Below, piece after piece: positions 18,912 to 42,324 of a stretch of 64,000 nucleotides of DNA. A model generated the notes under the pieces. It searched no databases. It saw only the letters and a program-made list of their open reading frames with translations, and was not told the DNA's origin. Within the stretch, counting starts at the first letter, position 1, and every line of letters starts with the position of its first letter. The DNA is from Bilabrum cf. latius. Lineage: Eukaryota. Made by a program: the position numbers and the translations under genes. The DNA is taken from NCBI GenBank assembly GCA_965178125.1, contig OZ237745.1, positions 372,001-436,000 on the forward strand. The letters are read 5' to 3'.

Positions 18912-19893
18912 GGGGGGGTCAACGTGGTGGTGGTGGAGTGCCACACCAAGCGTTGAGGACGAGGGCTACGCTACGCTCGCCCCTCCTTTAAAGGCATATT
19001 TAGCAACTCAAGTGTTTCCCCTATAAACCTAAATGATTTCCCAAGGGGTTCCCCAAGAACCCCTATAGAACCCCTCTATGTACCCATTTTCAGATATAAA
19101 ATTTACTCCTACGAAGTAGGGGTAAATTGAAGAATTCTAATATTTAACCCCCTTATAAACTCTAACAGCAAAGACAGAGATGTTTTAGTAAAGTAGGAAA
19201 AAATGAAGAAATTAACCAAGTGTCCAAAATATCTCTGTGTTTGCTGTAGGAACGGAAGGATGAATTCCCAAGAGACCAAGAGACCAACCGAGGATTTCCC
19301 CAAGAGAACAAGGTATTTTATCAAGAGACCGAGGTATGTTCCCAAGCGACAAACCGATAAACCGACCGATGAACCGACCGATGAACCGACCAAGGATTTC
19401 CCAAGGATTTCCCAAGGATTTCCCAAGGATTTCCCAAGGATTTCCCAAGCGACTAAATTGTTCTCCGAAGCAACCAAACCGATTACCCAAGAGATGATAC
19501 ATTATAAGGAAAACGAAAACAAATTATAATTGTATTTTAAGTCCCTTTGGAAAAGTCCCCCAAAAATTGAGAGATTTGACAGGTCAATTTTAAGAGACTT
19601 AGAAAGAATAAATATATTTTCCAATTAAAATTAAATGTTGTAATTCCTATGATGCCACCATAAAAATTAAAAGGAAAACGAAAACAAATTATAATTGTAT
19701 TTTAAGTCCCTTTCGAAAAGTCCCCAAAAAACTTGTCAATTTTACAGGTCAATTATAAGAGACTTAGAAAAAATAAATTAAGTTCCCTATTAAAATTAAA
19801 TGTTGTAATTCCTATGATGCCACCATAAAAATTAAAAGGAAAATAAAAAACAAATTATAATTGTTTTCCAATTAAAAACACAAAAATTGATTG
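18912..19893 (+). repeat. Virophage left terminal inverted repeat
   Basis: Reverse complement of 42325-43485. Contains 11-bp GGATTTCCCAA and 12-bp ACCGACCGATGA tandem arrays and a ~170-bp direct duplication. Confidence 0.95.
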
Positions 19894-19954
19894 CCTAAAG
19901 TGGAAATGTCGTACCTTAAGCATAACTTACGTAGTCTATAGTACAACCACATAA

Positions 19955-20194
19955 ATGGCAAAATCACAAAAGGAACTCGAGAATTACATCTTGGCGACCA
20001 AAGAATGTCTTAAATCAGTCCCGTTTATTACAACACGAGAAGCATACGATATGGCCAAAAAGTACCTTGAATTTACAAAGACTATTATTTGGATTAATTA
20101 TGATGATGACGATGACCTGCTTGCTGACTTTGAGGAAGCTAAAGATTTAAGTCAAATTGTAGTTGAATGGCACGAAAGTACCAAAACCAAATGA
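19955..20194 (+). CDS. Virophage hypothetical protein (79 aa)
   Basis: ATG..TGA ORF preceded by the conserved TCGTACCTTAAG/TCTATAG motif. Confidence 0.7.
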   Translation: MAKSQKELENYILATKECLKSVPFITTREAYDMAKKYLEFTKTIIWINYDDDDDLLADFEEAKDLSQIVVEWHESTKTK

Positions 20195-20259
20195 TTTTTT
20201 CCCAAGAATTATTTTCCCTACTTTACAAAAGTAAGGAGAATGATACAACTATATAGCAA

Positions 20260-21315
20260 ATGAGTAGCGCCTTTGAAAGAATATTACAATCCCTAAACAT
20301 TTATCCCAACAGTCGTATTGTAAATTTAATGAAACGACCAAAACGACCCAAAGGAGTAAATCGACCCCACGTAAATGTACCAGAACCTCACCAAGTGGTA
20401 CAAATGGATTTATTATCATTACCCCACGACAATAATTATAAATACGCATTAACTGCTATTGATTTACATACAAAGTAGGCCGATGCTGAACCGCTCAAAA
20501 CCAAGCGTTAGAACGAAGTATTAAAGGCATCAAAAAAGATTTTCAATCGTGGTAATGTCCAGAAACCGCAGCACCGTTTGGAAATAGATAATGGAAAAGA
20601 ATTTAACGCTTTACAAAGATATTTAGAAGAGACCGATGTATTTGTACGAAGAAATAAAGCAGGTCGCCACCGACAACAAGCATTAGTGGAAAACTTAAAT
20701 AAAACGTTGGGAAAAGCCATATTTACCCTATAGAACGTTAATGAGTTAAATACAGGTAACGAAAGCGTAGAATGGGTGGATATGCTTCCAAACATCATTG
20801 AAAACTATAATGAATATCAACTGGAAAAGTATATAGAAGAACCACCTTTACCCCCAGAACACTTCGACTTTACGTAGTGTAAAGGGGACGCTTGTAATAT
20901 ATTGGAAGAGGGTACAAGAGTTCGTATACCATTAGAAGAACCCAGAAAGGCTACAAATTTACAGCAAAAATTATCCGGAAATTTTCGTGCTTCCGATTTA
21001 CGCTATAATCCAGAAATCAAAACGGTTACTAAAGTGTTATTAAGACCCGAACAACCACCTTTATATGTTGTGGATTAGGACGATTTAGTGGCTTATACAA
21101 AAGAGGAATTACAGATTATCGACTTTGATAATGAGGACAATAACCGAGATGCTCAGACAATCTTTCTCCCAAAAAAGATAAAATCCGAGAACGAAACAGA
21201 GTATCAAATCGAATGGAAAGATTTTCCAGAACCAGAACATTGGACGTGGGAACCAAAGAATAAAATCCAAGAAATTGCTCCTAATTTAATTTTGGAGTGG
21301 GATATAGAAAATTGA
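20260..21315 (+). CDS. Retroviral-type (rve) integrase with C-terminal chromodomain (~351 aa)
   Basis: With TAG read through: HQVVQMDLL, EIDNGKEF, QQALVENLNKT (D-D-E) and YQIEWKDFPEPEHWTWEP. Ends TGA. Confidence 0.9.
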
Positions 21316-21372
21316 GATGCCTCGTATCGTACCTTAAGGATTATTTTCGTATTCTATAGTACAACAACAAAA

Positions 21373-23034
21373 ATGTCATTCACTCTGCCGACTAAAGCGT
21401 ATTCGTCAAAAAGCCTTATGGACCTATGTAATGCCGGAAAACAAGAGGAATGTATTCAATACCTTAAACAATACTTCTACCGCACCCACGAGCAAGGTGG
21501 CGGGGTGTATTTTCTAATAGCATCTGAATTAAATCGGAATAACATAAGTGATGACGAACCCCAGAAACCAGTCTGGTAGTTCCTTACGAATAAAAATATT
21601 ACTGAAAATTACCTGATTGGGGGACACTGTATTTACGCGATTGTGGGCAACAAAAGAGTAAAGACTTGGTCAGCACGAGACTGGTTCTTAAATGAGAATA
21701 CCGACGTATTTACGATTGTAAGAAAATTTAATTCACCTACCGTGGATTACGACAATCAAACAATTAACGTTATGGGTTCACCTATACTTACACGGGAAAA
21801 CTGTGGAAACATAGAGGATTTATCCGAAGACGCAAAAGCAGGCGCGACTATGATTTATGAACATATCCAGAAGGTGTGGACTTCAGAAGACAAAGAATAG
21901 TGTGATTTTGTGATGAAATGGTTGGCTCACGTTATTGTGGGCGGAAAGAAGTTGGGAACAGCACTATATTTGAAATCTCCACAAGGAACTGGTAAATCGA
22001 TGATTATTACCTTCCTTATGAGAAAACTACTCGGATATACCCTCACACTATAGACGCTTACACACAAGATGCTTCAACCCGACGCCTTCAACTCAATTCT
22101 GGACGGGAAACTATTAGTCAATTTTAATGAAATTCCAAAAGCCCCGCCAACTATTTGGGACGCCATGTAGGCAACACTAAGAAATCTTATTACGGAAAAA
22201 CACTTTTCCTGTAATGAGAAGTTTGTCAAATCCGAAAGTCGTCCGAATACATTCAATTTAATTATTGATACGAATGATAGTCCAATCAAAATCACCGAGG
22301 AAATCCGTAGATATTGTGTTTTGGATGTGAATACATCTAAGAAAGGAGACAAAGAATACTTTACAACACTAAAACGTTTTACAGAAAATCCAGAAGTGGC
22401 TAAGGCATTTTATATGTTATTGGTTGAAATCTATGATACATCACCAGACTTTACAGGACAATTCGCACCAAAATCAAAGAATTTTTACAAAGGAATTCTT
22501 GATGGCGCACATCCGGTTTTAAAAATTCTAAAAGAAGAGTGGCTGGACGAAGGCAGAGATTTTAAAATGACAGTCTTGGAATTCCGCAATTATCTAAAGT
22601 AGGAACTGAACGGTAGAGTGAAGAACCTTGGTACACCTATGATTAAAACACTATTGTCAGAGGTGGGTGTTCATTCAACGATGAACAAATAGAGAAAACA
22701 AGAATTTAATGTGAAACACGCAGACTTACTAAAAGGCTTCCAATCTAAGTTTTAGGCACTTCGTCATTCTGCTGAGATGGAAAAAGCAAAATCCGAGGTG
22801 GATGTTCTTCGAGAATAGATTAGAGAACTACAGAAACAAGTCGCATAGCAACAGGAAACGATTGAATAGTTGGAATTAGAAAAGGAGATTACACCGACGG
22901 AAAAAGTCCATAAGAAAATCCAGAAACAGCTGAGTGTTGAGAATAGCATCGCTATTCAAAAATGGATAAAAGAGAACCCACCAAAGAACAAAAAAGGGAA
23001 ACTTTCTAAATTCCTCTGTAAAATTGAGAAGTGA
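21373..23034 (+). CDS. SF3/D5-like helicase (~553 aa)
   Basis: With TAG read through: Walker A LYLKSPQGTGKS, Walker B-like LVNFNE, IIDTND, RRYCVLD. Ends TGA. Confidence 0.85.
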
Positions 23035-23091
23035 GTGAGTTCGTACCTTAAGAATAATTATCGTATTCTATAATATATTAGATACTATAGA

Positions 23092-24933
23092 ATGCCCGAA
23101 ATCGATTTTACGGAACCCCAAAGAACCAAATTGCGTCTTAATGGGAAACCAATATGGAGTATGCGATTTGAGAGCGAGGACCTTATCAACGTAAAAGATG
23201 TCTTGGAGTTTATCCGCGATTACGACGATGGTGGTGAAAATCCGTTTGATGACTTTAAATTTAAGGTGAATATCAATTTTCAAGATACAGGTTGGCGAAC
23301 AAGAAGCACTTGGATTACTACAGATGATTTAGAAAATCAAGATAGTTTATGGGCGGGTTACGAAGACGACGATGACGACGAATATAGAAAATTGAATTCT
23401 TTTGAGCTACTGCTTATTAGAAAGCCAGAACCAGAAGGCGGTGCTGACGAACATAACGATTGTTTATATAACGCTATAAAACAGGCTTTTCCTTTTTCAG
23501 TTGGTCGTAAGGTTAATGTAAAGAACGCAAAAGGCAAATGGAAAACTACTATTAAAAGAATGTCATAGTCTGACCTGAAAGAATTCTTGAAAATTGGGCG
23601 TGATGACCCCGTTGATTACAGAAGAATACCAGAGATAGAAGACGAACTAGAAATACGTATTAACGTTGTGGGCGACTTTGAATACACATCTGGAAAAACT
23701 CATTTTGACCGTCTTCTAACTGTATCATTAACAAATGGGCATTACAAGTATGTTCCCCCCATTAGTTAGAAAGAATTATTTACACCGCCGTCTAAAGAAC
23801 CGTGTACGCTAGTTACCCGCTTGTATCAATCCGAGAATTCTTATTTACTATTTGATGGAGACCGTGAGTATCAATCAGAAGGCATTACATCAGTTTCCAA
23901 GGATAAATTCATCTTTGAAGTCAAGTCCAAGGAAGAACTAAGAACAAAACACGAAGAACGGATGAAAAATGTAAGGGCATTAGCGAAGGAGACGGGTGGA
24001 TATATGGATTTATCACGATTTATGTTTAGAACATCCCTATTTGTAAAGTCGTATTTCAGTAAGTTTTCCAAACTTTACCCTGCCGACCCGATTGACCAAG
24101 TTGAAGCACTATGGATTTCAAGAGCATCAGGTGGTGGATTGAATTGGGCAAACAAGAATACTACATTAAAAAACGCATACCAGTACGATATTAACTCATT
24201 TTATCCAAGTATTATGAAGGGTACATTTACATTTCCGGTTAGAAGGGGTAAGTTCGTACAATTTAAAGTACCATCCAGTGGGTTCTATCCGTACGGCATT
24301 TTTAGGGTACAGATTGAAAATCTCAATTCTAAATTAGTACAAAAAAGAAAAAACAATTATTATACCCAATATGACATTAACCGAGCGATTGAGACGGGCG
24401 CTTAGGTGTCTCTGATTGAAGACGGTGAAGCCAACGCTTTACTTTACGATGAGACAACAAGGGTGAAGGCAAATGGACTGTTCAAAACGATGATTGAGCG
24501 ATTGTACGGTTATAAAAAATAGGGATTGAAGTGTGCGAAGGAGATACTAAATAATATTTGGGGTTCTCTATGTTAGAAAAACACAATCACAAAAACACTC
24601 CGAGATGGTGATTGTATGAATTTTAGACAATTAAAGAACGCGTATCCTAAAGCATCTGGACGACTTGTATCGGGTATACTATATGACGAAGAGTACGATT
24701 ACAAAACAGCCTACGCAAGAATGGGCCCCTTTCTGACTGGACTTGGACGAAGTAAATTGTCCAAAATGATTGAGCCATATCTTGAAAACATTCACTATGT
24801 CAACACGGATGGTTTCATTAGTGAGAAAGAATTACCTCTAAAGTTATCAACGAACCTTGGGGGTATGAAGTTGGAGCAATCAGGTGAATGTCAAATTATT
24901 CACAGTAAGAAGAAAATTTTTAGAAAAGATTGA
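23092..24933 (+). CDS. Protein-primed family B DNA polymerase (~613 aa)
   Basis: Motif A YDINSFYPSIM, motif B KEILNNIWG, motif C YVNTDGF. One frame with TAG only, ending TGA. Confidence 0.9.
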
Positions 24934-25298: not shown

Positions 25299-26528
25299 TT
25301 AAGTATCGTAGGCAAATATTTTCCAAGCCTGTTTTAGGGCATTCTTCTTGGATATTCCTTTTCCTCTTAAAATGGACGCCATTTTCATAACTCTTGAACG
25401 TTTTGTTTCACACTGACATTGACCTCCAAATATTTCCAGATACATACCCGATACTGGGTCATTCGTATGCGAATGGATTTCTTTCATAATTGGTCTTCCA
25501 ACTGTTTTAGTTGCTAAATCCCAACCTTCCTTAAAATCTTGTCCAAAATCCCTTTCTGTGTTCTACTTATGTTTTGCCTAATTTTTCAGTAAGGCGTTTC
25601 TGACATTTTCCGGTAAATCATCTAAACCTCTCCCAAACCATTTGGAAAAATAACCAGCCACGTCAGTAGCAGCATTAGCCACTCTCTTAGTAAATCCCGA
25701 TACACTCTTAGCAATACTTTCCACATCCTACATAATAAATTGGTTTAAGGGTGGTGTCAAAAACCCATTTGTGCGTAGAACATCCTAAATGAACTTTTGA
25801 CAATTCAACGAGAAAGCACGATACTAATAAAAATTGTATTCTCCTATTTTTTGTAAAGTGGTTTCATATAATTCCCTTACTGTTTTCTAAGGTTTTCCAT
25901 TAATATTTACTTCCATAGTTTGTGTTTTCTTGTTGGTGGAAAATCTTGGGGACAAATTCACACGCTCATTCTTCTCTAAATATATTTTCCTACCACCTCC
26001 AAGGTTCAACTCTAAGGCTAAATGAAAAAAATCATTATATCCGTGTTTATTTTTTAACTTTTTCATTTTTCCCAAGGTTATCCAGTTGAGTAACCGATTA
26101 ATCGCACCACTAATAGGGGTTCTAATCACTTTCATAGCTATAATTGTTCTATCCCCGTATTGCTGTAGTGTTCTCTGGACTTCGTTTGAATTCCCATACA
26201 CAACCCCACCTTTAAGCTGGCTTCGCGGACCATCTTTTAAATACTAATGAAGTGTGTTGGATTGTGTAGGTTTCTTCTAGGATTTCTTTTTTGGTTTTTC
26301 TTTTGTTCCCACACCATCTTTAAGCTGTTGCGCCAGCTAACTGCGCCGAGAGGGGGTGCTTCGCACACCATCTTCAAACTTAATTGCTTTTTCAAGGGCT
26401 TCTTTAGAATAAGGATGTTCACTTTTCCATGTCCTTGTTGTTTTACTCTTTGGTTCTTTGACACTAATGTACGTCTTAACAAAACCAGAATTCATTTTTC
26501 CGCCACTAAGTGAATAAAAACTATCCAT
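25299..26528 (-). CDS. Virophage protein with a putative permuted papain-fold (PPPDE/LRAT-like) domain (~409 aa)
   Basis: Three track ORFs share one frame through TAGs. Motifs FFHLAL..LEKNE and YRAFSLNCQKFI (His before NC). Ends TAA. Confidence 0.6.
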
Positions 26529-26554
26529 TTAGTATAGACTTGTATTTAAAAAAC

Positions 26555-27172
26555 TCATAGACGAGAACCAAGACCAAATGTTTTACGGACGAATTCCTCC
26601 AGTTGCTAAAAGGATGAATAGACACAGTACTAACTCTAATGTAATCCAGCGATTAAATTCGTTCTTGAGCGTTCCACAGACAATAAGTCCCCCGATTTTT
26701 TACCCTCACGGATTTCCTCAAAAAGACTGTGAGAAGGCACACACACAAAAATTGAACTTTCCTTAAATAAATCTTTCGCTAATTCCAACGAACCAACCAT
26801 AACAATTAAACGCCTCGATTTCTTCGTGAGCCAATCCGCTTTAATTTTTTCATACACTAATCTTGATTGGGAATAATAAAAGAGGCGGTGGGTGCTTTCA
26901 TCACCATCAATTAACATTTTCTCCATTTTCTATTTTTCCTGTCCTGAGATTTGAGCATTTACGCATTCGTCTAAATCAATAATTAGCGTGTCCTTATCCA
27001 CCGCTTCTAGGGAGCGACACAAAGTAGTTTTCCCAGAGCCTTTTGGAACAACCACGCAGGATTTCTGTTTCTAAGTTCCGTCTTTCGTCCACCAAGAATA
27101 TAGACACCGACTACCAGAATACATTAAAGGAGCCAAAGTCCCAGCAACCATTACAGCAGATGACACTGACAT
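26555..27172 (-). CDS. P-loop NTPase/kinase-like protein (~205 aa)
   Basis: VVVPKGSGKTTLCRSL and LIIDLDE; ends TGA. Confidence 0.65.
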
Positions 27173-27204
27173 TGTTTTGATATACTATATACCAAGACAA
27201 ATAT

Positions 27205-27888
27205 TTATTGCTACTCTTCTTGTTTCTTCTATAAAAGTTTTACATGCTTTTGAGTTTTTTGATGTCTTCTTAGTTTATCTTCTGTTATAGAACATCCACA
27301 TTCACACTATACTGTTTTCCGTTTTGTTCTATACTCCTACCCATTACTTTTGGCAATCATCCGCTTCTAATGAATTTGGGTTTTTCTATGTCTTGCGATT
27401 TCATGACGTCTTAATTTTGTTCCACATTCACAAACACATATATCCTTTTTTATCTAAGACAACACTTTTTCTGAATTGGATTTGTACCTTTCACGAGCAC
27501 GTTGTCTTATATCATCTATATTTTCTTTGTAATACTCTCGTTTTTTCTACATAATTGCCTAGTAGTTATCTATTCTATACTAAGCACCACTTCGACCAGC
27601 AACCATTTTATTCACACATTCGGTTTTCTGTATCCACTACCCTTCTATTTTATTGAGTTCTTCTTTAGACGAGCACGAACATGTTTCGATTAGGTCTATT
27701 CTATGGTCTTCCATTTGTAAAACCTTAAATGATGTTGTGTACCCATACTTCCCCTTCTTATACTATCTAAATTTTATCCTATGCTACGACATTCTCATAC
27801 TCAAAGATTGAGTAGTAGAACCAATATACGTTAATCCTGTAGAAGGAGACCAAATTTTATATATCTTCCCCTTTGAATAATCAGGCAT
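27205..27888 (-). CDS. GIY-YIG endonuclease with C-terminal CECG zinc motifs (~227 aa)
   Basis: MPDYSKGKIYKI..TYIGSTTQSLSMR and CECG..RHQKTQKH. Missed by the ORF track because of TAGs; ends TAA. Confidence 0.85.
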
Positions 27889-27949
27889 TCGCTTTTCTAC
27901 GCTTTTCTACTCTTTTCTATTCCCTTACACTTAAATCATTTTTTCATAC

Positions 27950-29749
27950 TCAAGCTTGGAGCATAGCGAGAAGTTGATTGCGAGAAAGAGATTTACCACC
28001 TGTTAAGCCCGAGCCTAACTTGGCACCTGTTAAGCCCTTGCCTTTCTTGGTAGTTTTTCGGGGTTTCCTTTGGCGTCCCATACCAGCCATTTCACCCACC
28101 ATTTTAGCGGTGTCAAATACCTACTTACCATCCTTTAATACTTTTTTGAGATTGCCTTTCTTTACCCAATCAGCGGTTTTGTGTGCGAACTTTTTTAAGG
28201 CATGTCTAATCTTTTTCCCAAGACCGCGACCATGTAATCCTGATAATTGACTTTCATAGACCACGGGTAGTTTAGAGGCGGACAAAACGTCTGCTCGTGA
28301 GATGACACCCTGCTAATACTCGAACTTAGACCCATCAATCAAATTTAATACTCCTTCGTATAATCCAATCACCACACACTATACATTATCGTAGTCCACA
28401 ACATCATTATTCTTCACTCGTAGGGTGATAGACAATTGATTAGAACCGTTGCTACCATTCGTCTAATCTACATCTAAGCTTAAGTCCTTGGCGGGGTCAA
28501 TACATAGCAGGCCACCAGATAATACCCTTTGTTGATATCCAGGCTATTCAGGCTATATTCCATTATCGAAGCGTCGCATAGCCCATTCCGCGTATTGCTA
28601 TTCAAGTCCGTTGCTTCTGGATAAGTCCCATAACTGCTGTGGCGATGCGTCGGCGAGTAATCCAGATTTGTTATTCATCTCGATACTTATTCCCTCAATT
28701 CCAAGGAATGTGTTTCCCTAATCTACTGAGACGCTGGTAGGTGAACGACGGGCGAATACAAATAAACGACTTGGTACACTATTGCTAAGTTTTATGTTGT
28801 TGTTGGTAAGAGTTGCTGTAGTACCTGCGGCAATTGTTGGACTATGACTTTGGGTATACGAAGTCATCTCAAAAATATCATACGAGACCTATTTAGGAAG
28901 CACAAAACCTGTCTTTGGGGTGATTTGTTCAAGATATAGGGCTGGTTCTTGGACATCTACCGACTGAACAGTAGCAGTTAAGCCCTATTGTGGAATACGA
29001 GACCAAACGGTTTTACTCAGTTGAGACCAATTAATATTTAAGGAGAGTGTTTGAATTCCGTATATAGCCGTTTGTTCCTATTTACTTTCGTAGTGGAAAG
29101 GTGGGCATAGTACTGCCTCAGTGCATTCAAAAACAAGAACACGATTTTGAGTTTGACCTGCGGGTACATCAGTATTATCCATTTGATACAAATTGTAAAA
29201 TCCACTTCCTCGGGCTGGTTGGTCCTAAAGCACGTCCTCATACGAAGCAAGAGCGTTATTCGTAGACTAACTCATCATCGCGTATGAAGGCACATTATCG
29301 CGTCTATACACACTATCAAGGCAATTCACACGGTGGACATCATCATCTAGTAAATGGGACAGCGCGTCCATTAATTCTCCGTTGTTCTGGGTATAGCGAA
29401 GGTTATTAATGCCAACTGTCTATGTTGCGATGGAGCGATTAAGTGGATAGGAGCGTGGAGCATCGTAATCTGGTCTAAAGGGTGCTAGACCACCTGCGGT
29501 TTGATTATTCACGGAAAAGGTGATAGAAAATCGGCATGAGACATAGGCGCGGCGGCACAAACCTACACCTGAAGGCATACTAATATTCCAGTTGACCCCG
29601 CTGTTGTAGTTTCCGGCAGACCCGGAGGGGTTATATTTACGGAAAGTCCGGTTCTCATAACCTTCTTGAACTTCATAAGGCTTCGGTTGTACATCTAGTG
29701 TTGCGGGTGATACTTTGACTGGCTGAAGGGCAAAGGTATTCAATGACAT
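27950..29749 (-). CDS. Virophage major capsid protein (599 aa)
   Basis: 1800-nt frame with ~14 TAGs and no internal TAA/TGA. Segments DAPRSYPL, NNKSGLLADASPQQLWDLSRSNG, GGLLCIDPAKDL and a basic Gly-rich tail match the recalled Sputnik-type MCP pattern. Confidence 0.9.
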
Positions 29750-29827
29750 TTTTGTTTTCCTTGTATATTATATACAACGAATAAAATTCTATGGGGTCGC
29801 GTCCCCATCCGACGAATTATCATTTTT

Positions 29828-30943
29828 TCAAAGTCCTTTCCGTTTCTTAAATAAAAACTTCACACTCACACTTCCGTGGCGTAAATAAAGAGGTCTTAGA
29901 TTTGAATAATTGTCTTTCCAATATAGATTAAACTAAATCCTATCTACTGAATGTGTATCTAAAAAATCAATTTCGTGGAGAATATGGGGCTGGTATTGAA
30001 GAACCTACTAATTAACTGTTTCAGTGTCATCTAATACACAATCCATATCCACTAATAAACTCTCGGTTCCTGAACCTGAATTTTGAACTGTATTAGTGGA
30101 TTGTCCATAGGCGGATTTCTAGGATATTGCCTCACTCCTCACTGGAAGACTTGAAGATGTGAAAACTATTCCACGGAAAACCTAAAACTACACTAAACTC
30201 CCTCGTTCCTAGGTCATCATTAATCTGTAGTCTCCTGATGGATTTCCCTCGAAGTATGCCTAAGGTTCATATTTTCCAACAGAACTGCCATCATCAAATA
30301 AAACATTCGTTCCTAAGGATTTGAATAGAATGCTTGCGTATAAGTCGTCATCTTGGATATCCATTCGTTCCATAGGAAAACCCGTCATCAATTCGTTAAG
30401 GGCTTCGTTCAACACTAATTTAAATTTCTGTCCTGAGTTTTCCTCGTCGTAATCGGGGTTTGCTACTAAGGAAAATTTACCATCTTTAAATAGTAAAACC
30501 GGAACTGATGTAATATCCGCTGACAAAGCATTCTATAGGGTTTCATTAAATAAATCAACAAAATGCTACACGGAATACATATAATAATAAGGAACAAACT
30601 ACATAGGATTGGAAAATGATGGTTGGTTTTCCCCTGTTAACTAGGGTCTCCACTGAATGCTTGAGGTCCACAAACTTACTCCGTCTTCATCTGTAATGCT
30701 TATTCTATACACCGTTTGATTAGGATTTGAAGATGGATTTTTCACTTTATCGGTTTCTATGTGTGGAACCCATAAAGGTATTGAATTGGTGCTTATGGAA
30801 AACCGGAATACTGACATCGTATAATCACCAACATCTTTATCTAATAATGGCTACTTGCGGGTTTCGCTATAGGTTGCTGGCTAAAAAGTATCTTCGTTAT
30901 TTCGTATGTTTGCGGTAATGTAAAATCGGTCTGGAGAACTCAT
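29828..30943 (-). CDS. Virophage minor capsid (penton) protein (~371 aa)
   Basis: N-terminus PATYSETRKQPLL..DYTMSVFRFSISTNSIPLWVP; C-terminus LYWKD..SVKFLFKK. Lies directly upstream of the MCP. Confidence 0.85.
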
Positions 30944-30999
30944 TTTACTATAGACGTTTATAATTATGGGGTGGGTTTGATTACTTTTCTAAAGTATAA

Positions 31000-31491
31000 T
31001 TAAGATGGTGTAATAAGTGAACCTGACACTAAGGATTTCCAACTAGATGTAGAAGAACTGCCAATCGCCACATAGACATCGTTGTCGCTTCCATTATACA
31101 CTAAAGCGCCCTTGAACTTTCGCTCTGCTGACGTATTAATAGGGGTAGAAGCGTCAGCCAATGTAGCTCCAGCAACCTCACTCAGCCCAACAACACCCTC
31201 TTGAGAAGTCTTGAATGAACCAACTAGTGAAATATCGCATCTTTCTCCTTCTTCGCTCATACTGAACTGACAACCAGCAGACGCTCCGTTTTTTCCAAAC
31301 CGTAGAACAGTTTCACCCCACTCCATATAAGGCTCTCCGTCTTTGAATTCAATACTTGGATTGCCTATGACTGCTCCCGTAGAGTTAGTAATTGCGGACA
31401 CTTTAATTGCGTCGCTACTCACAACATTACACGTAATAGTTTGAGACATAAGGTCTAGACTGTTCTTAGATAGAAGATTTGAAACTGACAT
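31000..31491 (-). CDS. Virophage hypothetical protein, possibly structural (163 aa)
   Basis: Intact ATG..TAA ORF, Ser/Gly/Thr-rich, next to the penton gene. Confidence 0.7.
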   Translation of the reverse strand: MSVSNLLSKNSLDLMSQTITCNVVSSDAIKVSAITNSTGAVIGNPSIEFKDGEPYMEWGETVLRFGKNGASAGCQFSMSEEGERCDISLVGSFKTSQEGVVGLSEVAGATLADASTPINTSAERKFKGALVYNGSDNDVYVAIGSSSTSSWKSLVSGSLITPS

Positions 31492-31556
31492 TTTATAGTA
31501 TATCCACAGAAATAATTTTTATCAGGTTGCCAAAAGATGTAAATAAGAGGTTTTGG

Positions 31557-32738
31557 TCAATCTTTTCCTAAAAGATGTAATAGTTCCATAGCAACCTAAT
31601 GATGAATATCTTTATCGGCTCCTTTTACTTTCTTGGCTACATTCATTGCTGTATCATAGATAATCCTTTTTCCACCTCGTAATCCTTTCCCCTTTTTTGG
31701 TTTTCCACTTTCTTCTACAGTCATTGCGCGTGATGGTGGGTCTTCTAAATCAGGCTACTACATTCCATAGGGCGGACTAAACCCCGTAAATCGCTACACA
31801 GGTCTAGTAGCACGTTTTCCAATTCCCTGCTCAATTTCCATCCTACTCGGCATATCATAGTACTCACCAGTTTCTGGGTCCCACGCCCCCGGAGTGCTTC
31901 CTTGCGGTAGTGGTCTTTCATTGCTCGCTGCGGCTAATATGGCATCTAAGTCTTTTGATGTTTTTGACGCATTACTACTTGAACCCTCTTGAAAATGCTA
32001 AAACATATTTGTCTGCCCCTGTGATGTTCTTTGTGAGAAATTCTTTCCCTATTCTAAATCCCACGCTATTCGTTGTTTTTCAGTTAAGGGTCTGTCTTGT
32101 TGTATTCTTTCTCTGGCTCTTTCCAATAACTATTTATACGCACCCGAAGACCTTTTTGGAAGCTGTACTTGTGTTGGAGCGGAAAACGTGTTTCTTCTTG
32201 TTGTTCGAGCAGGTGTTTGTAAAGATGTTGGCTACTAATCAATTCCCAACATTCCCTACGGTATTCGTTGTCCGGATGCCTCCTATATAACTTTCCCTAA
32301 TTCTAAGAGTTGTTTTCTATCCTCAGCTGGAACTCTCTGCAGTCCTTCGTATCCTTTCCTTTGAAACCTCTCTATGTTAACGTATTGACGGGCGAGTTGT
32401 TGCTTCATTTGTGGAGACATATTGATATTACCAACAAAATCCTTCAATGCTTTCACTGCTGGACTTACATTTTTACCCTCAATAATACCTTTCATTATAC
32501 CAGATATTGACTTAGATATGATTTCCTCGTTGCTTTGGTCTGCCTATTTTCTCTACGCTGGAGTTCCATACCTTCCACTTTCTTTTAATCGTTCAATTTT
32601 TGCCCTTTTCCTTATAAAATCACTATATTCTGTTTCTAAATCTACGTCGTCCCTTGCCTGTAAATCTAACATTTTAGCATTGTCCAGTTCCCTTTCTAGG
32701 GCTTGCTGAATAAGAGCATTCACTTTAGCAGTTTTCAT
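31557..32738 (-). CDS. Virophage hypothetical protein (~393 aa)
   Basis: Track ORFs 32553-32738 and 32283-32495 share a frame, read through TAG to TGA at 31557-31559. The middle was not checked codon by codon. Confidence 0.65.
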
Positions 32739-32803
32739 TTACTATAAGCTTTTATAAAAAGCTTGACCAAAAAATAAAAAATAAAGTGTTTGTGTATAGT
32801 ATA

Positions 32804-33043
32804 ATGGATATTGATAAGTGGATTATATAGAGAACCAAACAACTCGCGCTATAGAAAGAACAAGACGCTTTAAATAGAGTTAAAAACCATCATATTAAAG
32901 TTGGAAAAGGCCGTAGTAAGCCTAAGCGGAAAGTGAGCGCCAAAATGAAACGCCGCAATAAACTTGTAAAAATGGTGATGTAGTAGACTGGTATGAGTTT
33001 ACCTCAAGCAAGTCGGTATATACGAGAATAGAATATTATTTAA
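32804..33043 (+). CDS. Small basic virophage protein (79 aa)
   Basis: RRNKLVKMVMQQTGMSLPQASRYIRE, containing tandem in-frame TAG TAG; ends TAA. Confidence 0.7.
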
Positions 33044-33072
33044 AGAAACTTTTATAAAAAGTTTGACCAAAA

Positions 33073-33975
33073 TTACATAAGGTAAGCCTACTTTTCTCCT
33101 AATAAATACCTCGGGTAATTCCTGTGGACACATACCCACCTAGAAGGCATTTTTAAGACTTTAGAGATTTCTTGTTTCTCAAGTCCTATATAATTTTTTA
33201 GTAAATACCTTAGAGAATGTGCGGAAGAACACTAAGGGAATATAACGAACTTATGACTTTCCGCAAGAATAATTCGGGTACTTTTATAGTTGGTAGATAA
33301 ATGACTTGTAATTAATACAGAAGTATTTGAATGTCTTCCAACCTACAATATTTCATCCTGTAAATGATTGAGGGCTTCCCTTAACTTCTTATCTTTGATT
33401 GTATCAATATCATCCAAGATTACTAAGGCGTCCCTTAATTCCTAATGAATATCAATCGGGTTCTCCACCAGTTCCTCATTTAAAATAATCCTTTTCAGTC
33501 CTTTCACTTCATCTAAGACTTTATCCTACTATACTCGTGAAAATAAAATAATTCTCCTGTTTGGAAACATTCTGTGATAATTCTTAGCATATTTGGAAAC
33601 CCAAGTAGACTTCCCAGCACCTGATGGTGCGGTGATATAAATGACCTCTCTTCCTTTTGGATTTGGTAATGATTGGAATTCACCCTATTTTAATGTAATC
33701 TCTTTATGTTTCTTTTCCTATGCTTTTTCATACAAGTATTTGATGTCTTCGTCTAGGGGTTCGACCTGTTTGATTAAGTGTCGTGCTAATAAATCCATTT
33801 TCCTCTGCGGAAATCGTTTCCCTGTAAGTGATGATACTTGAAAATCCTAGAATGATATACTATCATCTCCAAATTGGTTGTCTGTCTTTTCCGCTGTGTA
33901 TAAAATACGTTTTCCGTGAGTGTCATATGCGATAGGTGATGATTTTGTAGTTTCCTTCCAAGAAAAATGTGCCAT
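33073..33975 (-). CDS. A32/FtsK-HerA family genome-packaging ATPase (~300 aa)
   Basis: Walker A APSGAGKST, Walker B LVILDD, GRH motif and LITSH; ends TAA. Confidence 0.92.
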
Positions 33976-34164
33976 TTTAGTGTATTTACTATATGTTTTT
34001 ATATTTTCTAAAGTGTTTTGTCTTTTTGTTGAAAACTTATTTTGAATGATTGTCTTTTATGCTATCCACAAATTCCAAAACGGATTTTGTAGAAATACTT
34101 CTACACTTAAATAGTGGTTAAGAGAATTCATCTCCCCCAATATATGTTTCTATAATAAATATAT

Positions 34165-34719
34165 ATGGATTATGCTCTTAGCGATAGTGATATTCGTGTT
34201 CTCCTCCAAAATCCACCAAATATTAAAGGCTTTCTTCCTACGTCGGTAAATATTGTACCTTATACTGAATTAGGATAGTACAATAGTATTGATGGATTAT
34301 TTAGTCGTTGTAATTGTTGTATTATTTTGTATCAAGAAGAAATAAATTCCGGTCACTGGGTTTGCTTATTTAAGCGTAATAAAACAATATACTTCTTTGA
34401 CAGTTATGGAATTCGTCCAGATAGGCAATAGAGTACGATGAGTGATGTAGTTCGTAAAAGGTTCTATGAAGACCCTGAGTTAATTTATTTAATGTATCAT
34501 TCTCCGTATAAGATTGACTATAACCCATATTAGTTTTAGGCAGATGGAATGGATATAGCAACCTGCGGGAGACATTGTATAGTTCGTCTTTGGAATAGAG
34601 CGAAAAACGCTGATTAGTATAAAAAGTGGGTGGATAAGGTTTGTAAGAAACATACATTAAATCCTGATGAATTAGTGTATTTATTGACGTATCATCTTAA
34701 TGATATACAGGAAATATAA
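34165..34719 (+). CDS. Adenain-like capsid maturation cysteine protease (184 aa)
   Basis: SGHWVCL (His), FFDSYG (Asp) and Y-TAG-F-TAG..TCGRHC (Gln, Cys); ends TAA. Confidence 0.92.
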
Positions 34720-35059
34720 ACGGGCATACATTAAATATTATTATATCACTTTATAGAAATAATGCGTTGGACTTCAAAAGACCAAGATAAATGTATGAGA
34801 TTAAGGGGAAAAATAGATGACAAAATATGTAATCTAAACGTCAAACAAGGTGTTCTGATCCTAACGCCGGATGGGGTTCGGTGTTGATGCCAGAGTGGGA
34901 GCGCGTGAACGTCTCGTTGGGTTCCGATGGCGGTTGCGACCGGGAAGGTGCGACCAAGCCAACGGATTGCTTGCGATGACGCGCATACCCTCTCTGTGTT
35001 CAGGAGAGGGGCGGAGATTGGGTAATTTTTGAAGAAAGTTCCTGCTCCGTTCATTTAAC

Positions 35060-38000
35060 ATGAACAGCGCCGGTAGCCATCGGATCGACCCGGCGCGCGG
35101 GGCAGCAGGCAGCGCCAGGGTGATCGCCGCAGCTGCAGTGTTCGCTCGCGCGGTAGGCCAACCTGCGGTCACGTTGGCCGATTTAGCTACTCGATATGGT
35201 ATGAATGATGCTGTGTTCTCGGATTTCATTGCTCGTCTCAACGTGCAGCGCGACACCATGGCGCCTCGCGATCCCGATCTTCAACGTGCACACGATGCGG
35301 GGTTCCTGTGCTACTTGCTCGACAGGTACTCATCAAAGCAGTCCTTCACGGCATCACGGTCCATTAATGCTGTCAAGAGCACCGCTCTCGCCAAGTTCGT
35401 GTCAAATGGGACGCTAACGACTCTCGGTGCACGGCTGCTTCTGCCGGCGTCGCCGAGCTCTCCTCGACGGCAACAGCCTGAGCGACTCGCAGGACAAGTA
35501 CATCTTCATCCTGTTCAGCAATCTCCAGAGGCTCCTTCTTCAATCGAGTCTCCATGGTCCCTGAGTTCACTACCGACGGGCCGGCGGACCGCTCCTCTTC
35601 GCGGACAGCATCGGCCACCCGGACGCCTCGACTTCGGCGCCGCCATCCATGCTTCACCTGGACGCGACCGAGCGGCGTAGAGTGCCACCAGGACAAGCCG
35701 CGGAATTTCGCCCTTGCGGGCGCGGCCAGGCTCTTCGACGACGCGGCAGGCCCCGCTCGCGCGAGGCGGGCGGGCCCACCTGCACGAGTCCCCGAACCGA
35801 GGGCCCCCGGGGACAGCAGCAGATACCCAGCGCAGCGGACAGCCCAACTTCTCAACGTCTTCACCCCCGCGGCACCAACCTCCACCTGCCTCGGGCAGGC
35901 TCCCCGGTAGGCCAGGCACTCGGGACTTCGGCGATCCGACAGTGCTCGCGGAGGCGCTCAGCAGTGCAGCATCACGGTCAACGGGCCCGGCAGGCCCTCA
36001 GCTTCTTCTTCCTCGTGTGTCTCCGGCTTACGACTCCCCCGGCGTGACTCCGGGCACCAGCCGCTAGCTTGACGCGGTCTGGGGCCGCCTTCCTGGGGAT
36101 CTCCAACGGGCAGTGTTGCACTCCACGACGCTGCGGGGAACGGCCGACCCAGCGACAATTCTGCATCTACGCCTGTTTGCGCTGTGGCACAGCATTCCGA
36201 CTCTGCGCCAGGAAGAGCTGCTGTCGCACCTCTCCGCCCACGTGGAATTGCAATGGTACTTCTCGCACCGACTAGCAGCCTCGATGCACTCATCCCCGCC
36301 ACCAGTCGACGCTACACCCGCTCATCAGCCACCCCGTGAACCTCCTGTGTCATCTTCTGCCTCACCGCAGCCTGCGTCTTCAATTGACCCAGTTTCACCG
36401 GGCGCAGGCACGGCAGTGGACTCCGCGGTCGTTCGCTCGCAACCAGTGGAGATTTTGTAGCGTGAGGCCTCTGCACCTTCAATCGCTGCAATTCGAATGC
36501 AGAATTGGTTTTCTGATGATTTCTTGGCAACGTTGACCTCGATCTTTCGCCAATCCGCGTTCATGCCGCGGTTTTGCTAGGCTGACGCGCTTCATTTGGA
36601 CGCTAGCGGCCGCGATTTCGCTGCAGAACTGGCCCGTGCCCTGTTTGGTCAGGCCGTGACGAGAGCCAAGATTGAATCGGCTATTTTCTCGTTCACGAGC
36701 CGGCTTCATGCAGCTCTGCCGATGAGCAATGCCAGTTTTGGGAAGTTTGATGCGTCCAACTCGGAGTCGTCTGCTGCAGGCGGACGAGAAAAGTAGGTGC
36801 CATCTAGCGAGTTACTATGCACTATTTACTCGGCTATTTCCTTTGCTTTAGGCTGTGTGCTCGTGCGCGCTGCTTGCGTGCATTCGACGGCGTCCTTGCC
36901 GTCCTGGTTGCCGCAGGGCAGCAGCTCGTGGTCGTGTCCAGCATCACTAGTGCCCGATTGGAAAACCCTGGGGCAGGTTCGCAATGATTTTCTTCGTTTG
37001 GTTAGTGCTTCCGGGGCATCATCTGCATCGGCGTCCCGACTAGAGGTGGTGTTTGCCGCTGTGTGTGTGATACCACGCGGAAGTTCAGCCTTTGAGATGC
37101 TCTCCTCCCATGCTTGGCGCCATACAGGCGAACGCTGTGACGTTGAGATTCGTGACCTTGTTGGGAATGAGATTCCTTCGTGCTCTTCTGGCGACTGCAT
37201 GCGTCTCCTACAATTGCTGCATCCGTGGGCCACTGAGGCATGCAGATCAGGCGAACCTGGCCTCGTGCGCGGACTGCTACAGGGAGTCCAGGCTGACATG
37301 CAGGCGCCGTCCCGTCGAGCAGCACTGTCCCGTCACTTCGACCCCCGCGGGGGCAGTGGAGGCCGGGGCAGTGGAGGCGGGGGCAGTGGAGGCTCCAGGC
37401 GCAGCGGGGGTGACAGCGACCAGCCCAGTGCCGATCGTGGCGGAGGTCGACACCGTCGAGGCCGTGGACGTGGCGGCGCAGGCCAGCAAGGTGGCCAGCA
37501 CCAGCGTGCGGACCGGCAGGACGGGGGTTCCACCAGGAAGTCCAAGGAGCCTTCACCTGACCCCCCCCCACGAGGTACGTCACGTCAGAGCCAGCCCAGC
37601 ACTCCAACACCAACACTGCCGCAGGGGCGTACGCAGACTACCACCACATCGGACGCGTGTGCTGCTTCCACACCACCTGTCACGTCAACGCCCGCGCTTC
37701 ACCCAGTCCTGGTGGCCCTAGCGCGCCCTAAGCGACCGCAGCGGCCGCCCACGGCGTCATCCACGAGGCTGCCAGGTAGGACGGACATCTCTCCAGCATT
37801 CGTTGACTGGGCATATCCAGCTCCGGATCCAAGCCATGAGTGGGCAGGGACGACTGCACCCTCCGTCGAGGACTTCATACAGCGAAAGGACGATCACCAG
37901 CGTACCAGAGAATGTCCCGGCGAATTCGTGGAGGCTCCAGCTGCGACGTGGGACCGTGAGCGGCTCCACCTGAAGGTTCACGACGACCCGCTGGCATTCA

Positions 38001-40819
38001 CGCCACGCAAGTACTTCGACAAGGTGCCTCGCTAGACTGCAACACTGCGGACCCGGCGGGAGGTTCTGTTTGGCGGCCGCACACCGAGGAAGGCCCCGTC
38101 CCTTGCCGAGTTTAAAGCCCTCCCACGAGTCGAGCGTGTACTGGCAGCACTGAACTATGGTTGCCCCCTAGCCATCGTGGACGAGGTGCCCAAAGAGCAC
38201 GATCTAGACTACAAGGACCGTAAGCTGTCTCCGGAAGAAAAGTGGGAGATCGCCTGCGAGATCGGGCGCTCCATGCGGGCTGGCGAGCGTGACTTCGTGT
38301 CACCCAAAGATTTCGACACAGCCCGGGCCCGGCCGCTGGTGATCCCCAAGAAGGACTCGACAAAGCTACGGTTCCTTCAGGACTCCTCACTCAAGGTGAA
38401 CGGCCAGCGTACCGGTCTGAACAAGGCCATCGACTACAGTGCAGCCACGCCTGTGCAGCAGACGAGCAGCATGGACGTGCTGCGCTCGGCAGCCGCAGCA
38501 GTTCGATCCTGCCCCAAGCGTGCCAGCGGATACGTCGTCGACATTTCCTCGTACTTTCGGGTCCTGCCGGTGGCAGTGGAGGATCTCCAATACAACCTGA
38601 TCAAGCTGCCCGACGGGCGCATCGTGCAAGATTTCAGGCTCTCTATGGGCAGCTCATCATCTCCCGCCTTCGCAACTACGATCAGTTCGGCTTTGGCCCA
38701 AGCCCTCGAGGAGCAGTCCATTGGCAGGGCCATGCGACCCGGACGGAGACACAAGCAGAAGCAACGACGCCGGAAGCAGCAGCACGCCAACGCCCAATCC
38801 AGCACGACGGACCAGGCGCCCCAGGCGAACTCGTCAGCAACGTCCACCCCGCCTGCCGCTAGCACGACAACGGGACATGTCAAGACGGCCCAAGACTAGT
38901 CCCGCCATTGGTAGGTCGAAAATGAGGTGTTTGTAGATGACTTTGCCTGCCTCGGCGGAGATCACGAAGTCGATGCATGGGCAATTCGAGCCATGGGGCA
39001 GCTGGACTCCACAAACTTCCCCGTCAGCATCTCGAAAGCATTGAAGCAAGGGGCCCCAGCCCCGGTGTTCGAGTACTTGGGCCTCACCTACGACTTGATC
39101 AAACACGAGGTGCGGTGCCCTAAGGACAAGGCCAACGACGTCCTGCGCAGACTGCACGAGGCACTCACGACGAAGGGGATGCTGCTGTCTAGCTTTGAGA
39201 CCTTGGTCGGCAAGTTGTCCTTCCTGTCGGGCGCACTTTATGGTATGCGCGGTGCTCTACGTCCCCTGTATGACGCCAAGGGCTGGGCCCTTCACAAGTA
39301 GGCCAGCCGGTCACGACCAGGTGAGGTGTGGGTCCCCACCTCCTTTGTGTCCAAGGGTGGCTTCACAGTTGGGGAAATCCTCGAGGGATTCCAGGTGGCT
39401 ATCCAGCGCAAAGGCGGGCGCAGCTTTCCGATGCGGGGCACCATTGACTGTCCCATCCTTCGCACTGATGCGTCGGTGACAGGCTACGGCGCCGAGCTGC
39501 TTCTCCACGACAAGGACGGCAACATCACTTCGCACACCGGCATCCAGGGCACTTGGCCGCATCGCCTAGAGGCGAAGGATGTAGCGGCGGCAGAACTTGC
39601 AACATGTTTGTTGGCACTGGCGCATTGGCGACAGCACCTGCGTGGACGTGTGGTGCGTTTGTGGTGTGATAATGATGCTTCCGTGTAGCTGATACGCTAC
39701 GGCAGACCCAAGAGCCACATCATGGCAGCCTTACTTCGCCCTATCTTCGTACTGCAGACAACGCAAGATGTGCAGATTCACGTGAAACACATTCCTGGCG
39801 AGGACAACGTCGTTGCGGACGCTTTGAGCCGCGGCTCACAGGAGGCATACACGCACCTGGACGCGGTGTATCAGGTCGACTGTCCCACGCCGATCTGGAA
39901 CACCTTGTACAAGCACGACCATTTCACGCTGGTGGCCACTCTGGACTCAGTGGGTTGCGCACGGCGTGGGGGCACTTCGACAACTTCCTCACGTGGTACG
40001 ACATCGACCGCAGTTTCATGGACGGGCATCTTCCAGCAGCTCGCAGACTCTTCGCGTTCAGGCTCAATGCAGCGCTCTCGAGATTCGCAGTCTTCTTAGG
40101 GGAATGTTCGCCTCTCAGTGGCGGCACCATCGCTACATACACCAGAAATGCCTAGCGAGTCGTCATCGAGTCCACAGGTGCGTGCGGCGTCCCACGGTCA
40201 AGCTAGCTCGACAGCATCCTCCGGTACTACCACAAAGCATCGCCATCGGCGCACCCGTTGCGTCGATCTTCAGCCCCACTCCGCGCAATCCGACGGTGCT
40301 TCTCGACAGCCGGTTGCAGCACAACAGAGTAGGCTGCTCGGACAGCTGTCTGTCTCTGCTTCTGTGGGGGCCTCCGGCTGGGAGAGCTCGTCGGTGCGTC
40401 CAGACGACAAGCCGGCCTCCAATGGCAGCAAGTGCAGTTCATCACGCGAGACGGACGCATCCATGGTGTTGCCATCCGCCTGGGCCTCCACAAAGCCGAC
40501 GGCCCAGCCAAGTTCTCCATCCAAGCCGCAGAGCCCATCGCAGTCCATTGCAGAGCCGGACGATGGGCAGTCACAGGCAGCAGGTTCTGCGGCGTGCGAG
40601 CCTTCGTGGCGTGGGCAGCAGCGAGCCACGCCCCAACTGCAGGCGCAGACGAAGACTACGCCCGGTAGCTGGCGCTCAGCTGCCCCACGTCAGGGCCAGT
40701 CTTCGTGGCGAACACGAAGCCGATCGTCAAGGCGCAGGTAGTACGGGCGCTCCGCAGCTTCTGCTCACGAGAAGTTGCAGGAGCGGTGCACGGACATTCC
40801 ATCCGCATCGCGGCAGTGA
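35060..40819 (+). CDS. Ngaro Gag-like + reverse transcriptase + RNase H open frame (up to ~1919 aa)
   Basis: Single frame with TAG only. RT motifs VIPKKDSTKLRFLQD, VDISSYF, LSMGSSSSP and FVDDF. RNase H motifs TDAS, AAEL, CDN and HIPGEDNVVADALSR. Confidence 0.85.
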
Positions 40820-42079: not shown

Positions 42080-42324
42080 AAGTACTCTATAGTATAGTCT
42101 TCTACTTATATCAAAGCCCGAGCTTCTTGTATTCCTTTAGTTTTTCGTGTAATTTTTTCCAAATACGTGGATTAATTTGCTTGACAATATGCTCTATCAT
42201 CAACTCCTTTAAAAATGGGTTCATTTAGTATAGTGATATAGAATGCTTTAAATTATCATCTCTCGGGTAATCCTTGGAGAATTAATTTTAATATTTCTTT
42301 GTATCCTATATTGTCAAAATTTTT

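Follow-up and report, generated by a model that had tools for sequence, protein, structure and literature searches.

A candidate composite promoter before the replication genes of an integrated mavirus-like virophage

According to the current view, a virophage is activated once transcription factors of the helper giant virus recognise promoter motifs that the virophage has copied, and the motif set of a virophage is currently the best predictor of a helper able to reactivate it. Prior work has dealt mostly with late promoters, and the transcriptomes of Sputnik and zamilon show replication genes expressed before capsid genes without a known cis-element. Here we analyse a stretch of 64,000 nucleotides (nt) from Bilabrum cf. 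latius (contig OZ237745.1 of assembly GCA_965178125.1, positions 372,001 to 436,000 of the forward strand), hereafter called the window, in which positions 18913-43486 are an integrated mavirus-like virophage (provirophage). Three repeats in this element precede a small open reading frame (ORF1), a D5-like primase/helicase gene and the gene of a protein-primed DNA polymerase (pPolB). We read them as copies of a composite promoter that is confined to one class of genes, the replication genes (primase/helicase and pPolB) with the accessory ORF1, and that would be recognised by a mimivirid-like helper; we assign this reading a probability of about 0.7. Together with its relatives, the locus offers a conserved, mutable candidate cis-element that may explain how replication genes are switched on separately from capsid genes; the composite can also serve as a search pattern for the helper and as a target for reporter assays.

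Statements on published systems refer to the sections of the cited papers that were available to us. As the preliminary description of this DNA had stated, the octamer AAAATTGA is the early promoter motif of mimivirus and of Cafeteria roenbergensis virus (CroV), and TCTA is a late motif shared by CroV and mavirus (PMC5294985, PMC8547959). The mimivirus/CroV early promoter resembles the arrangement found here in that the same octamer is tied to a gene class and lies 65-72 nt before the ATG, inside the 150-nt window used for mimivirus (PMC5294985). It differs in that the octamer here belongs to a virophage and precedes replication genes, with CTTAAG and a late-type core coming after it; recognition of the octamer by the helper is putative. 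Mimivirus's own DNA replication genes are without the AAAATTGA motif (PMC5294985). In PgVV-14T (Gezel-14T), a virophage-like polinton-like virus (PLV) of Phaeocystis globosa virus, a AAAATTGA-type motif precedes five genes including the polymerase gene TVpol, and its authors contrast this use of an early motif with the use of late promoters by Sputnik and mavirus (10.1101/2022.07.28.501842). PgVV is a PLV with another capsid and another replication module, and the available sections describe no CTTAAG box or fixed-distance core for it (10.1101/2022.07.28.501842); our element, by contrast, is a virophage of Sputnik/mavirus type that encodes an rve integrase and pPolB. In Sputnik, two of the five early genes carry both early and late motifs, the early group including a DNA replication gene and the late group including the virion genes; no statistically significant class-specific motif was found there (PMC11998528), whereas here a palindrome at fixed spacing marks the class across lineages. 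Replication genes of zamilon are likewise expressed before morphogenesis genes, by a mechanism that was not identified (PMC11464507).

The TCTA promoter of mavirus and of EMALE04 (an endogenous mavirus-like element of Cafeteria) resembles the arrangement found here in that an AT-flanked motif containing TCTA precedes most genes of the integrated element; terminal inverted repeats (TIRs), a low GC content in a GC-rich host and an inserted retrotransposon are further points of similarity, and the TCTA motif of mavirus and EMALE04 is common with CroV late genes (PMC8547959). In comparison, our element has a longer core (TCTATAGTA / TATAGTA), the late consensus of Megamimivirinae rather than a bare TCTA is matched by four of its genes, and TAG is a sense codon, while the available text of PMC8547959 mentions neither 'genetic code' nor 'UAG' nor 'amber' for the Cafeteria EMALEs. 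Early motifs before replication genes of virophages or PLVs, and early plus late motifs before early Sputnik genes, are thus already in print; new are the CTTAAG box at fixed spacing from the core, its strict restriction to helicase and pPolB across mavirus-type lineages and its occurrence in a TAG-recoded clade. We found no report in the literature linking CTTAAG to virophages; the motif logos of other EMALE types (PMC8547959, Figure 3-figure supplement 5) lay outside this comparison and may bear on novelty.

Three copies of a composite motif and a general core

The three repeats and the four genes around them are as follows.

19883..19943, plus strand: composite copy 1, with AAAATTGA at 19883-19890, TCGTACCTTAAG at 19909-19920 (CTTAAG at 19915-19920), a 14-nt gap and TCTATAGTA at 19935-19943; ATG at 19955
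19955..20194, plus strand: ORF1, acidic, 79 amino acids (aa), without family assignment or homologue in related loci
20260..21315, plus strand: rve integrase with C-terminal chromodomain (PF00665 + PF00385)
21308..21361, plus strand: composite copy 2, with AAAATTGA at 21308-21315, TCGTACCTTAAG at 21327-21338 (CTTAAG at 21333-21338), a 14-nt gap and TCTATAGTA at 21353-21361; ATG at 21373
21373..23034, plus strand: D5-like primase/helicase (DUF5906, VapE-like; PF19263), 553 aa with 10 in-frame TAG
23020..23075, plus strand: composite copy 3, with AAAATTGA at 23020-23027, TCGTACCTTAAG at 23041-23052 (CTTAAG at 23047-23052), a 14-nt gap and TCTATAATA at 23067-23075; ATG at 23092
23092..24933, plus strand: pPolB (DNA_pol_B_2), with PF03175 just below cut-off (24.2 vs 25.8 bits)

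The match of pPolB to its family falls short of the threshold, and its homologues carry PF03175. The preliminary description had placed three motif parts before ORF1, the helicase gene and pPolB, and all of them are found there; the integrase gene, which lies between ORF1 and the helicase gene (20260-21315), has no box. It is preceded by the core-type motif CTATATAGCAA only, with neither CTTAAG nor AAAATTGA. In all three copies CGTA(G/T)TCTATA (starting at 19930, 21348 and 23062) follows TCGTACCTTAAG after a 9-nt spacer. The gap between AAAATTGA and TCGTACCTTAAG varies (18, 11 and 13 nt), so that the distance from box to TCTATA is the only constant one, and AAAATTGA begins 72, 65 and 72 nt upstream of the ATGs of ORF1, helicase and pPolB, respectively. 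Copy 3 has a second CTATAGA at 23085-23091, directly before the pPolB ATG. The octamer of copy 1 is the innermost part of the left TIR, with a mirror copy on the minus strand at 42328, that of copy 2 is made up of the last integrase codons plus the TGA stop, and that of copy 3 corresponds to the codons AAA ATT GAG at the end of the helicase gene. A similar geometry is known from the bipartite intermediate and late promoters of poxviruses, in which an upstream core, a fixed spacer and an initiator precede the start codon; their sequences are unrelated to those described here.

TCGTACCTTAAG occurs exactly three times in the window, and the sole other site with at most two mismatches, at 47087, is unrelated. 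For AAAATTGA, seven occurrences were counted on both strands of the 14,962-nt unique AT-rich part, compared to 2.5 expected from Markov-1 simulations (P=0.0125), and the probability that all three boxes have an octamer in the preceding 25 nt by chance is about 9e-9. The TCGTACCTTAAG-containing repeats before the three genes are confirmed as real and not due to chance. They form one repeat family (D7), with 85% (copy 2) and 65% (copy 3) identity to copy 1 over 52 nt; among the copies the boxes are invariant and the spacer sequence is variable. Such similarity raises the question whether one intergenic segment was recently duplicated within the element, or spread by gene conversion, with no selected function: the identity between copies 1 and 2 includes the bases after TCTATA, and the promoter of ORF1, an orphan, has the look of one copied from the helicase gene. 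We regard this explanation as highly improbable, because the differences between the copies are concentrated in the spacer and leave the boxes untouched, and because the same layout stands before helicase and pPolB in lineages with only 38-65% pPolB identity (see below). Public sequencing runs contain near-identical copies as well as a few short pieces in two other runs. In a variant with 98.5% identity, three of the 40 differences listed (out of 87) are located within the promoter regions or a short way upstream of them (21322, 23007 and 23078), all outside the boxes. One 34-nt piece over the helicase promoter carries four deletions and is too short to interpret.

The TCTATA part behaves differently from the rest. 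We surveyed 120 nt before all 13 genes of the element and found a member of the core family (TCTATA, TATAGT, CTATAG, TATACT, TATATAG) within 35 nt of the ATG in 11 of them, as compared to 7.2% of random 35-mers from the element (P=1.9e-11). In 6 of the 13 genes the 35 nt before the ATG include TCTATA itself; the conserved unit is longer than TCTA, the CroV motif being compared by its published description. TCTATA is therefore not specific to replication genes and belongs to this general core. We also searched for the late consensus of Megamimivirinae, [AT]8-T[AC]T-N4-[AT]5-[AG]TA[TG]A, under the published criterion of at most one mismatch and at most 100 nt upstream of a gene's start codon (PMC11464507). 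Four sites were found, each directly before the ATG of a gene on the same strand (g6, the major capsid protein (MCP), g10 and a gene labelled PRO), whereas 0.43 are expected; none of 150 simulations of the element reached four. The genes concerned are listed here.

25299..33975, minus strand: late-type gene block with g5, AAA-like g6, GIY-YIG, MCP, penton, g10, g11 and packaging-type ATPase
27181-27205, 29764-29788 and 31494-31518: full Megamimivirinae-type late motif sites in the late-type block
34141..34719, plus strand: late-type motif (34141-34165) and the gene labelled PRO, 184 aa, with homologues in related loci

No gene of the late-type block on the minus strand has a CTTAAG box, and in most of these genes a TCTATA/TATAGTA-type core stands 3-25 nt ahead of the ATG. 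The three replication-gene promoters miss the late consensus at one mismatch, although copy 3 (23053-23077) fits at two. The motif is two things, namely a general core and an upstream part (the TCGTACCTTAAG box and AAAATTGA) that is specific to ORF1, helicase and pPolB.

Conservation in related virophages with a TAG sense codon

Every long ORF of the virophage contains in-frame TAG, 5-14 per gene, and frames end with TAA and TGA. The same holds for host ORFs, e.g. a 1799-aa BTB/POZ protein with eight TAG and a piggyBac-like transposase with five; overall, in-frame TAG is found in 19955-34719 (virophage), 35060-40819 (a retroelement) and 841-11263 and 43678-45390 of the window. In the MCP, TAG coincides with glutamine at all 11 aligned positions in a relative with 94% identity and at 7 of 12 in one with 58%, although those proteins may have been translated with the same code. 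TAG is a sense codon, most likely for glutamine. A TAG-recoded virophage clade implies hosts with reassigned UAG and, presumably, helper giant viruses under the same code. Among the papers listed in a limited literature search on reassigned codes, none mentions virophages.

Scanning public metagenome contigs with a five-row pPolB alignment yielded 24 related loci. Fourteen of them are TAG-recoded and fall into group A (L002-L009, 60-65% pPolB identity), group B (L015-L018, 38%) and group C (L019-L020, 38%); the other 10 use the standard code. Upstream regions were counted once if identical, ORFs with less than 100 nt of upstream sequence were left out, and four ORFs whose called start is clearly internal were skipped. 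The preliminary description had made its proposal depend on conservation in related elements, and the composite is indeed conserved: CTTA[AT]G-N12-14-T[CA]TATA occurs in 14 of 14 helicase/pPolB regions of the TAG-recoded loci and in none of 25 regions of other genes. AAAATTGA was found in 13 of 14 helicase/pPolB regions of these loci (1 of 25 for other genes) and in 5 of 8 of the standard-code loci (0 of 31), giving 18 of 22 against 1 of 56 for all 24 loci. When the pattern is extended to CTTA[AT]G-N12-14-T[CA]TATA[GCA], it has 30 matches in 152,213 nt (the window plus the 14 recoded loci), all of them 9-18 nt before the ATG of helicase, pPolB or ORF1, and no match in 46 kb of host and retroelement DNA. 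The anatomy of the composite, its confinement to one gene class and its conservation are direct observations on these sequences.

Before helicase and pPolB, groups A-C share one layout: AAAATTGA, then 10-34 variable nt often ending in (T)GCGT, then CTTAAG, 12-14 nt, T(C/A)TATA(G)TA and, after 10-19 nt, the ATG. The gap between CTTAAG and the core is 14 nt in the window (3/3), 13 nt in group A (7/7), 12-13 nt in group B (4/4) and 13 nt in group C (2/2), and the core lies 9-19 nt before the ATG in the window and groups A-C. The palindrome is often extended to 8-10 bp (CCTTAAGG, ACTTAAGT, TACTTAAGTA, GTCTTAAGAC), and CTTATG replaces it in one sub-lineage of group B. The genes of group B and the helicase gene of group C are divergent, and there the motif lies in DNA that is non-coding on both strands. 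This comparison narrows the unit that had been proposed. Of the 12-nt TCGTACCTTAAG box, nothing is conserved in relatives beyond the palindrome CTTAAG and a CGT slightly upstream of it, while the TCGTAC half is lost; the invariant 9-nt spacer and the CGTA of the third part hold for all three copies of the element, whereas relatives show another spacing and, in group A, CGTT or CGTG. In L014, a standard-code locus with 28% identity, CTTAAG precedes both helicase and pPolB without AAAATTGA. In another standard-code relative (L011 1633-1714; L012 46-112 and 2218-2299), helicase and pPolB share a different block, TTTCCAAAAGAA ... AGAATATCTCTTTATAT, behind AAAATTGA. Promoters shared by helicase and pPolB thus seem to be general in the clade, even where a TTTAAG-like sequence takes the place of CTTAAG.

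The positions of the motif bear on two further explanations. The boxes might be replication-origin iterons, at which the D5-like primase/helicase is loaded, considering that the palindromic core is present in two to three copies per element, clustered in the replication module, and that groups B and C have two copies in a single short intergenic region, facing each other. Yet all 30 copies keep a fixed distance to the core and have a start codon of the matching strand 9-18 nt downstream, which a promoter predicts and an origin need not. Protein-primed replication by pPolB is expected to start at the termini of an element, and the TIRs carry no CTTAAG box. An origin function is therefore improbable. 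Still less credit is given by us to the sequences being 3'-end signals (hairpin terminators or polyadenylation sites) or TATA-box promoters of the host polymerase II. Copies 2 and 3 indeed stand directly behind the stop codons of integrase and helicase, and TCTATA resembles a TATA box. However, no stable fold was found (z-scores of +1.06, -0.20 and +0.22 for the three regions), and no gene ends upstream of copy 1, of the group B promoters or of the group C helicase promoter. In the usual polymerase II geometry transcription starts about 30 nt downstream of the TATA box; with a core 9-19 nt before the ATG such a start would land inside the ORF. A core so near to the start codon makes a TATA-box reading unlikely, and its position fits the short-leader promoters of cytoplasmic giant viruses.

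Additional searches returned few relatives. The five-row pPolB alignment retrieved from the IMG/VR viral contigs only the contig already found as L010, and a single MCP query against the same contigs found no relative. An exact 32-nt pattern had no match in the metagenome contigs, and in a phage collection no virophage relative of pPolB was present, only Bacillus phage polymerases at 26%. One group B locus (L017) has a complete group B pPolB (1950-3785), behind which stand a promoter of group A type and the beginning of a pPolB of group A (4327-4748); it could be a chimeric assembly, tandem elements or the result of recombination between lineages.

Promoter function and helper

We infer the timing of expression, the transcription start sites, the binding proteins and the identity of the helper from the arrangement of these modules. 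In the mechanism that we propose, the element would be read by a helper giant virus, most likely one of the mimivirids, through its transcription machinery. The proximal module consists of CTTAAG, usually with CGT just upstream, at a fixed 12-14 nt before the T(C/A)TATA(G)TA core, and the distal module of AAAATTGA, the mimivirid early octamer, at a variable 10-34 nt further upstream. The core alone, an AT-rich motif of late type, stands before nearly all other genes, capsid genes included. AAAATTGA and the CTTAAG box would then allow helicase, pPolB and ORF1 to be expressed before the morphogenesis genes or independently of them, while the morphogenesis genes would depend on the late-type core only. 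The fixed spacing between CTTAAG and core, approximately two helical turns from centre to centre, suggests that a palindrome binder contacts the core machinery, and the variable spacing of AAAATTGA suggests a separate module, possibly a tandem early promoter. Under the geometry of the iridovirus IIV-6 promoter (PMC5294985), a AAAATTGA-driven start would fall about 11 nt downstream.

The main alternative for the CTTAAG box, as opposed to a reader encoded by the helper, takes up the operator suggested in the preliminary description: the box would be an operator for a dimeric regulator from virophage or host, which would silence the replication genes of the integrated copy or be autoregulatory, AAAATTGA and the core being the promoter proper. 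CTTAAG is a perfect and often extended palindrome, and its place between the distal element and the core, at a constant distance to the latter, is typical of operators. Furthermore, it is kept in the 28%-identity locus L014, where AAAATTGA is absent, fitting a factor that travels with the virophage, and the element encodes proteins with Cys/His repeat motifs. However, no DNA-binding protein common to all lineages was identified, ORF1 has no homologue in related loci, and a palindromic hexamer could equally well be a promoter motif of the helper: a palindrome, TCCGGA, is found at high frequency upstream of ORFs in Tetraselmis virus 1 (10.1101/2022.07.28.501842, Extended Data Fig. 6 legend). We therefore consider an operator unlikely, though not negligible. 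The Cys/His repeats (Cys-x-Cys-x-Cys-Gly ... His ... His, zinc-finger-like) are found in the C-terminal half of the GIY-YIG protein (27205-27888, minus strand) and in a small ORF near the end of pPolB (about 24990-25262, minus strand). Judging from these repeats, the zinc-finger-like proteins are possible binders of the boxes.

Several observations weigh against a helper-read replication-class promoter. The loci share ancestry, so the Fisher P values of the class comparisons overstate independence, despite which at least four diverged lineages agree on the composite before helicase and pPolB. Among the more distant relatives with the standard code, only one of eight helicase/pPolB regions has the strict composite. 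The octamers of copies 2 and 3, like their group A counterparts, overlap coding sequence or a stop codon, and coding constraint may explain part of their conservation. In one sub-lineage of group A the helicase gene is preceded by AAAGATTGA, and the octamer is missing from the helicase promoter of group C. Conversely, the penton gene of L019 has two tandem AAAATTGA (10637-10685) and no CTTAAG box, which means that the octamer is not strictly limited to replication genes. None of the listed sequencing runs that contain the stretch is on record as RNA. As to the helper, AAAATTGATTATTTGTTTT is the promoter of the IIV-6 DNA polymerase gene, and similar early motifs exist in phycodnaviruses (PMC5294985); the octamer alone therefore does not fix the order to which the helper belongs. 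Finally, two pattern scans of IMG/VR did not reveal the box in a candidate helper, where the preliminary description had suggested looking for it: no giant-virus contig had a repeated composite. AAAATTGA-N8-32-CTTAAG-N12-14-TCTATA gave 16 single matches, all in AT-rich sequence with no gene start after them. CTTAAG-N12-14-TCTATAGTA gave at least 105 matches, one per stretch, and among the matches listed no contig had two and none had AAAATTGA upstream.

These scans cover IMG/VR and have no bearing on helpers absent from that collection. Their single matches look like chance and were rejected as helper promoters; a 16-base pattern had one match in the IMG/VR viral contigs, in GC-rich coding DNA, which was likewise judged to be chance. 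An Imitervirales helper, as originally suggested, is plausible: the proposal is strengthened by the four late-type genes that fit the Megamimivirinae consensus, while AAAATTGA-like promoters are not exclusive to Imitervirales, and it is reasonable rather than proven. A bolder version of the promoter reading, which we put forward tentatively and hold to be rather doubtful, is that CTTAAG-N13-TCTATAGTA is an undescribed replication-class promoter of the whole pPolB virophage clade and that its palindrome is bound by a dedicated dimeric factor timing genome replication. As the clade and the host read TAG as an amino acid, this factor and the helper would come from an unsampled host-virus-virophage system with a variant code.

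The integrated element and its surroundings

The identification of the element as a mavirus-like virophage follows from its Pfam content (rve+chromo integrase, DUF5906, pPolB, GIY-YIG, Sputnik-type MCP and V18/19 penton). It is 24.6 kb long, its GC content is about 37% (range 36-42%) in the GC profile as compared to 55-62% in the surrounding host DNA, and its ends were found in the repeat search as inverted repeats (I1 and I2) of about 1 kb each. TACTT stands on both flanks (18907-18911 and 43487-43491), which fits a 5-bp target-site duplication by an rve integrase. The remaining features are given below.

18913..19893: left TIR, with 165-nt tandem repeats that carry AAAATTGA / TCAATTTT pairs; its inner end holds the AAAATTGA of copy 1
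27950-29749, minus strand: MCP, double jelly-roll of Sputnik/mavirus type (PF21915, E 5e-25; PF22031, E 2e-31)
29828-30943, minus strand: penton, V18/19-type (PF21507, E 1.5e-10)
33073-33975, minus strand: packaging-type ATPase, with generic AAA matches only, near or below cut-off
34856..41516, plus strand: inserted GC-rich retroelement, with a 1919-aa ORF, an RNase H-like RVT_3 domain and 12 in-frame TAG
41795..42224, minus strand: two small right-end ORFs (37 aa and 94 aa), with the core motif only before each
42325..43486: right TIR, with AAAATTGA at its inner end on the minus strand (42328-42335) and no CTTAAG box after it

PRO, a protease candidate, has no Pfam match. In the repeat parts of the TIRs (19501-19893 and 42325-42900) each 165-nt unit contains an inverted pair formed by AAAATTGA and its complement, with about 13 nt between them; units of this type number one more in the right TIR than in the left, and both TIRs contain a run of 11-nt CCAAGGATTTC repeats. 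Copies of AAAATTGA are also present in the terminal regions of group A relatives (L005). The 98.5% identical variant from public runs, which was compared over 19864-20276 and 20247-24933 and covers the integrase-pPolB region, differs upstream of 20247; ORF1 and its promoter are replaced in it, so the left arm of the element is mosaic between copies or strains. The retroelement sits just after the PRO gene and has split direct repeats (176 nt at 34856/41184 and 131 nt at 41054/41386). Its layout is like that of Ngaro/DIRS elements inside Cafeteria EMALEs, and an association of Ngaro retrotransposons with EMALEs has been described in Cafeteria (PMC8547959). The right end of the virophage is adjoined by the piggyBac-like DDE transposase ORF (PF13843; 43678-45390, minus strand) with its five in-frame TAG.

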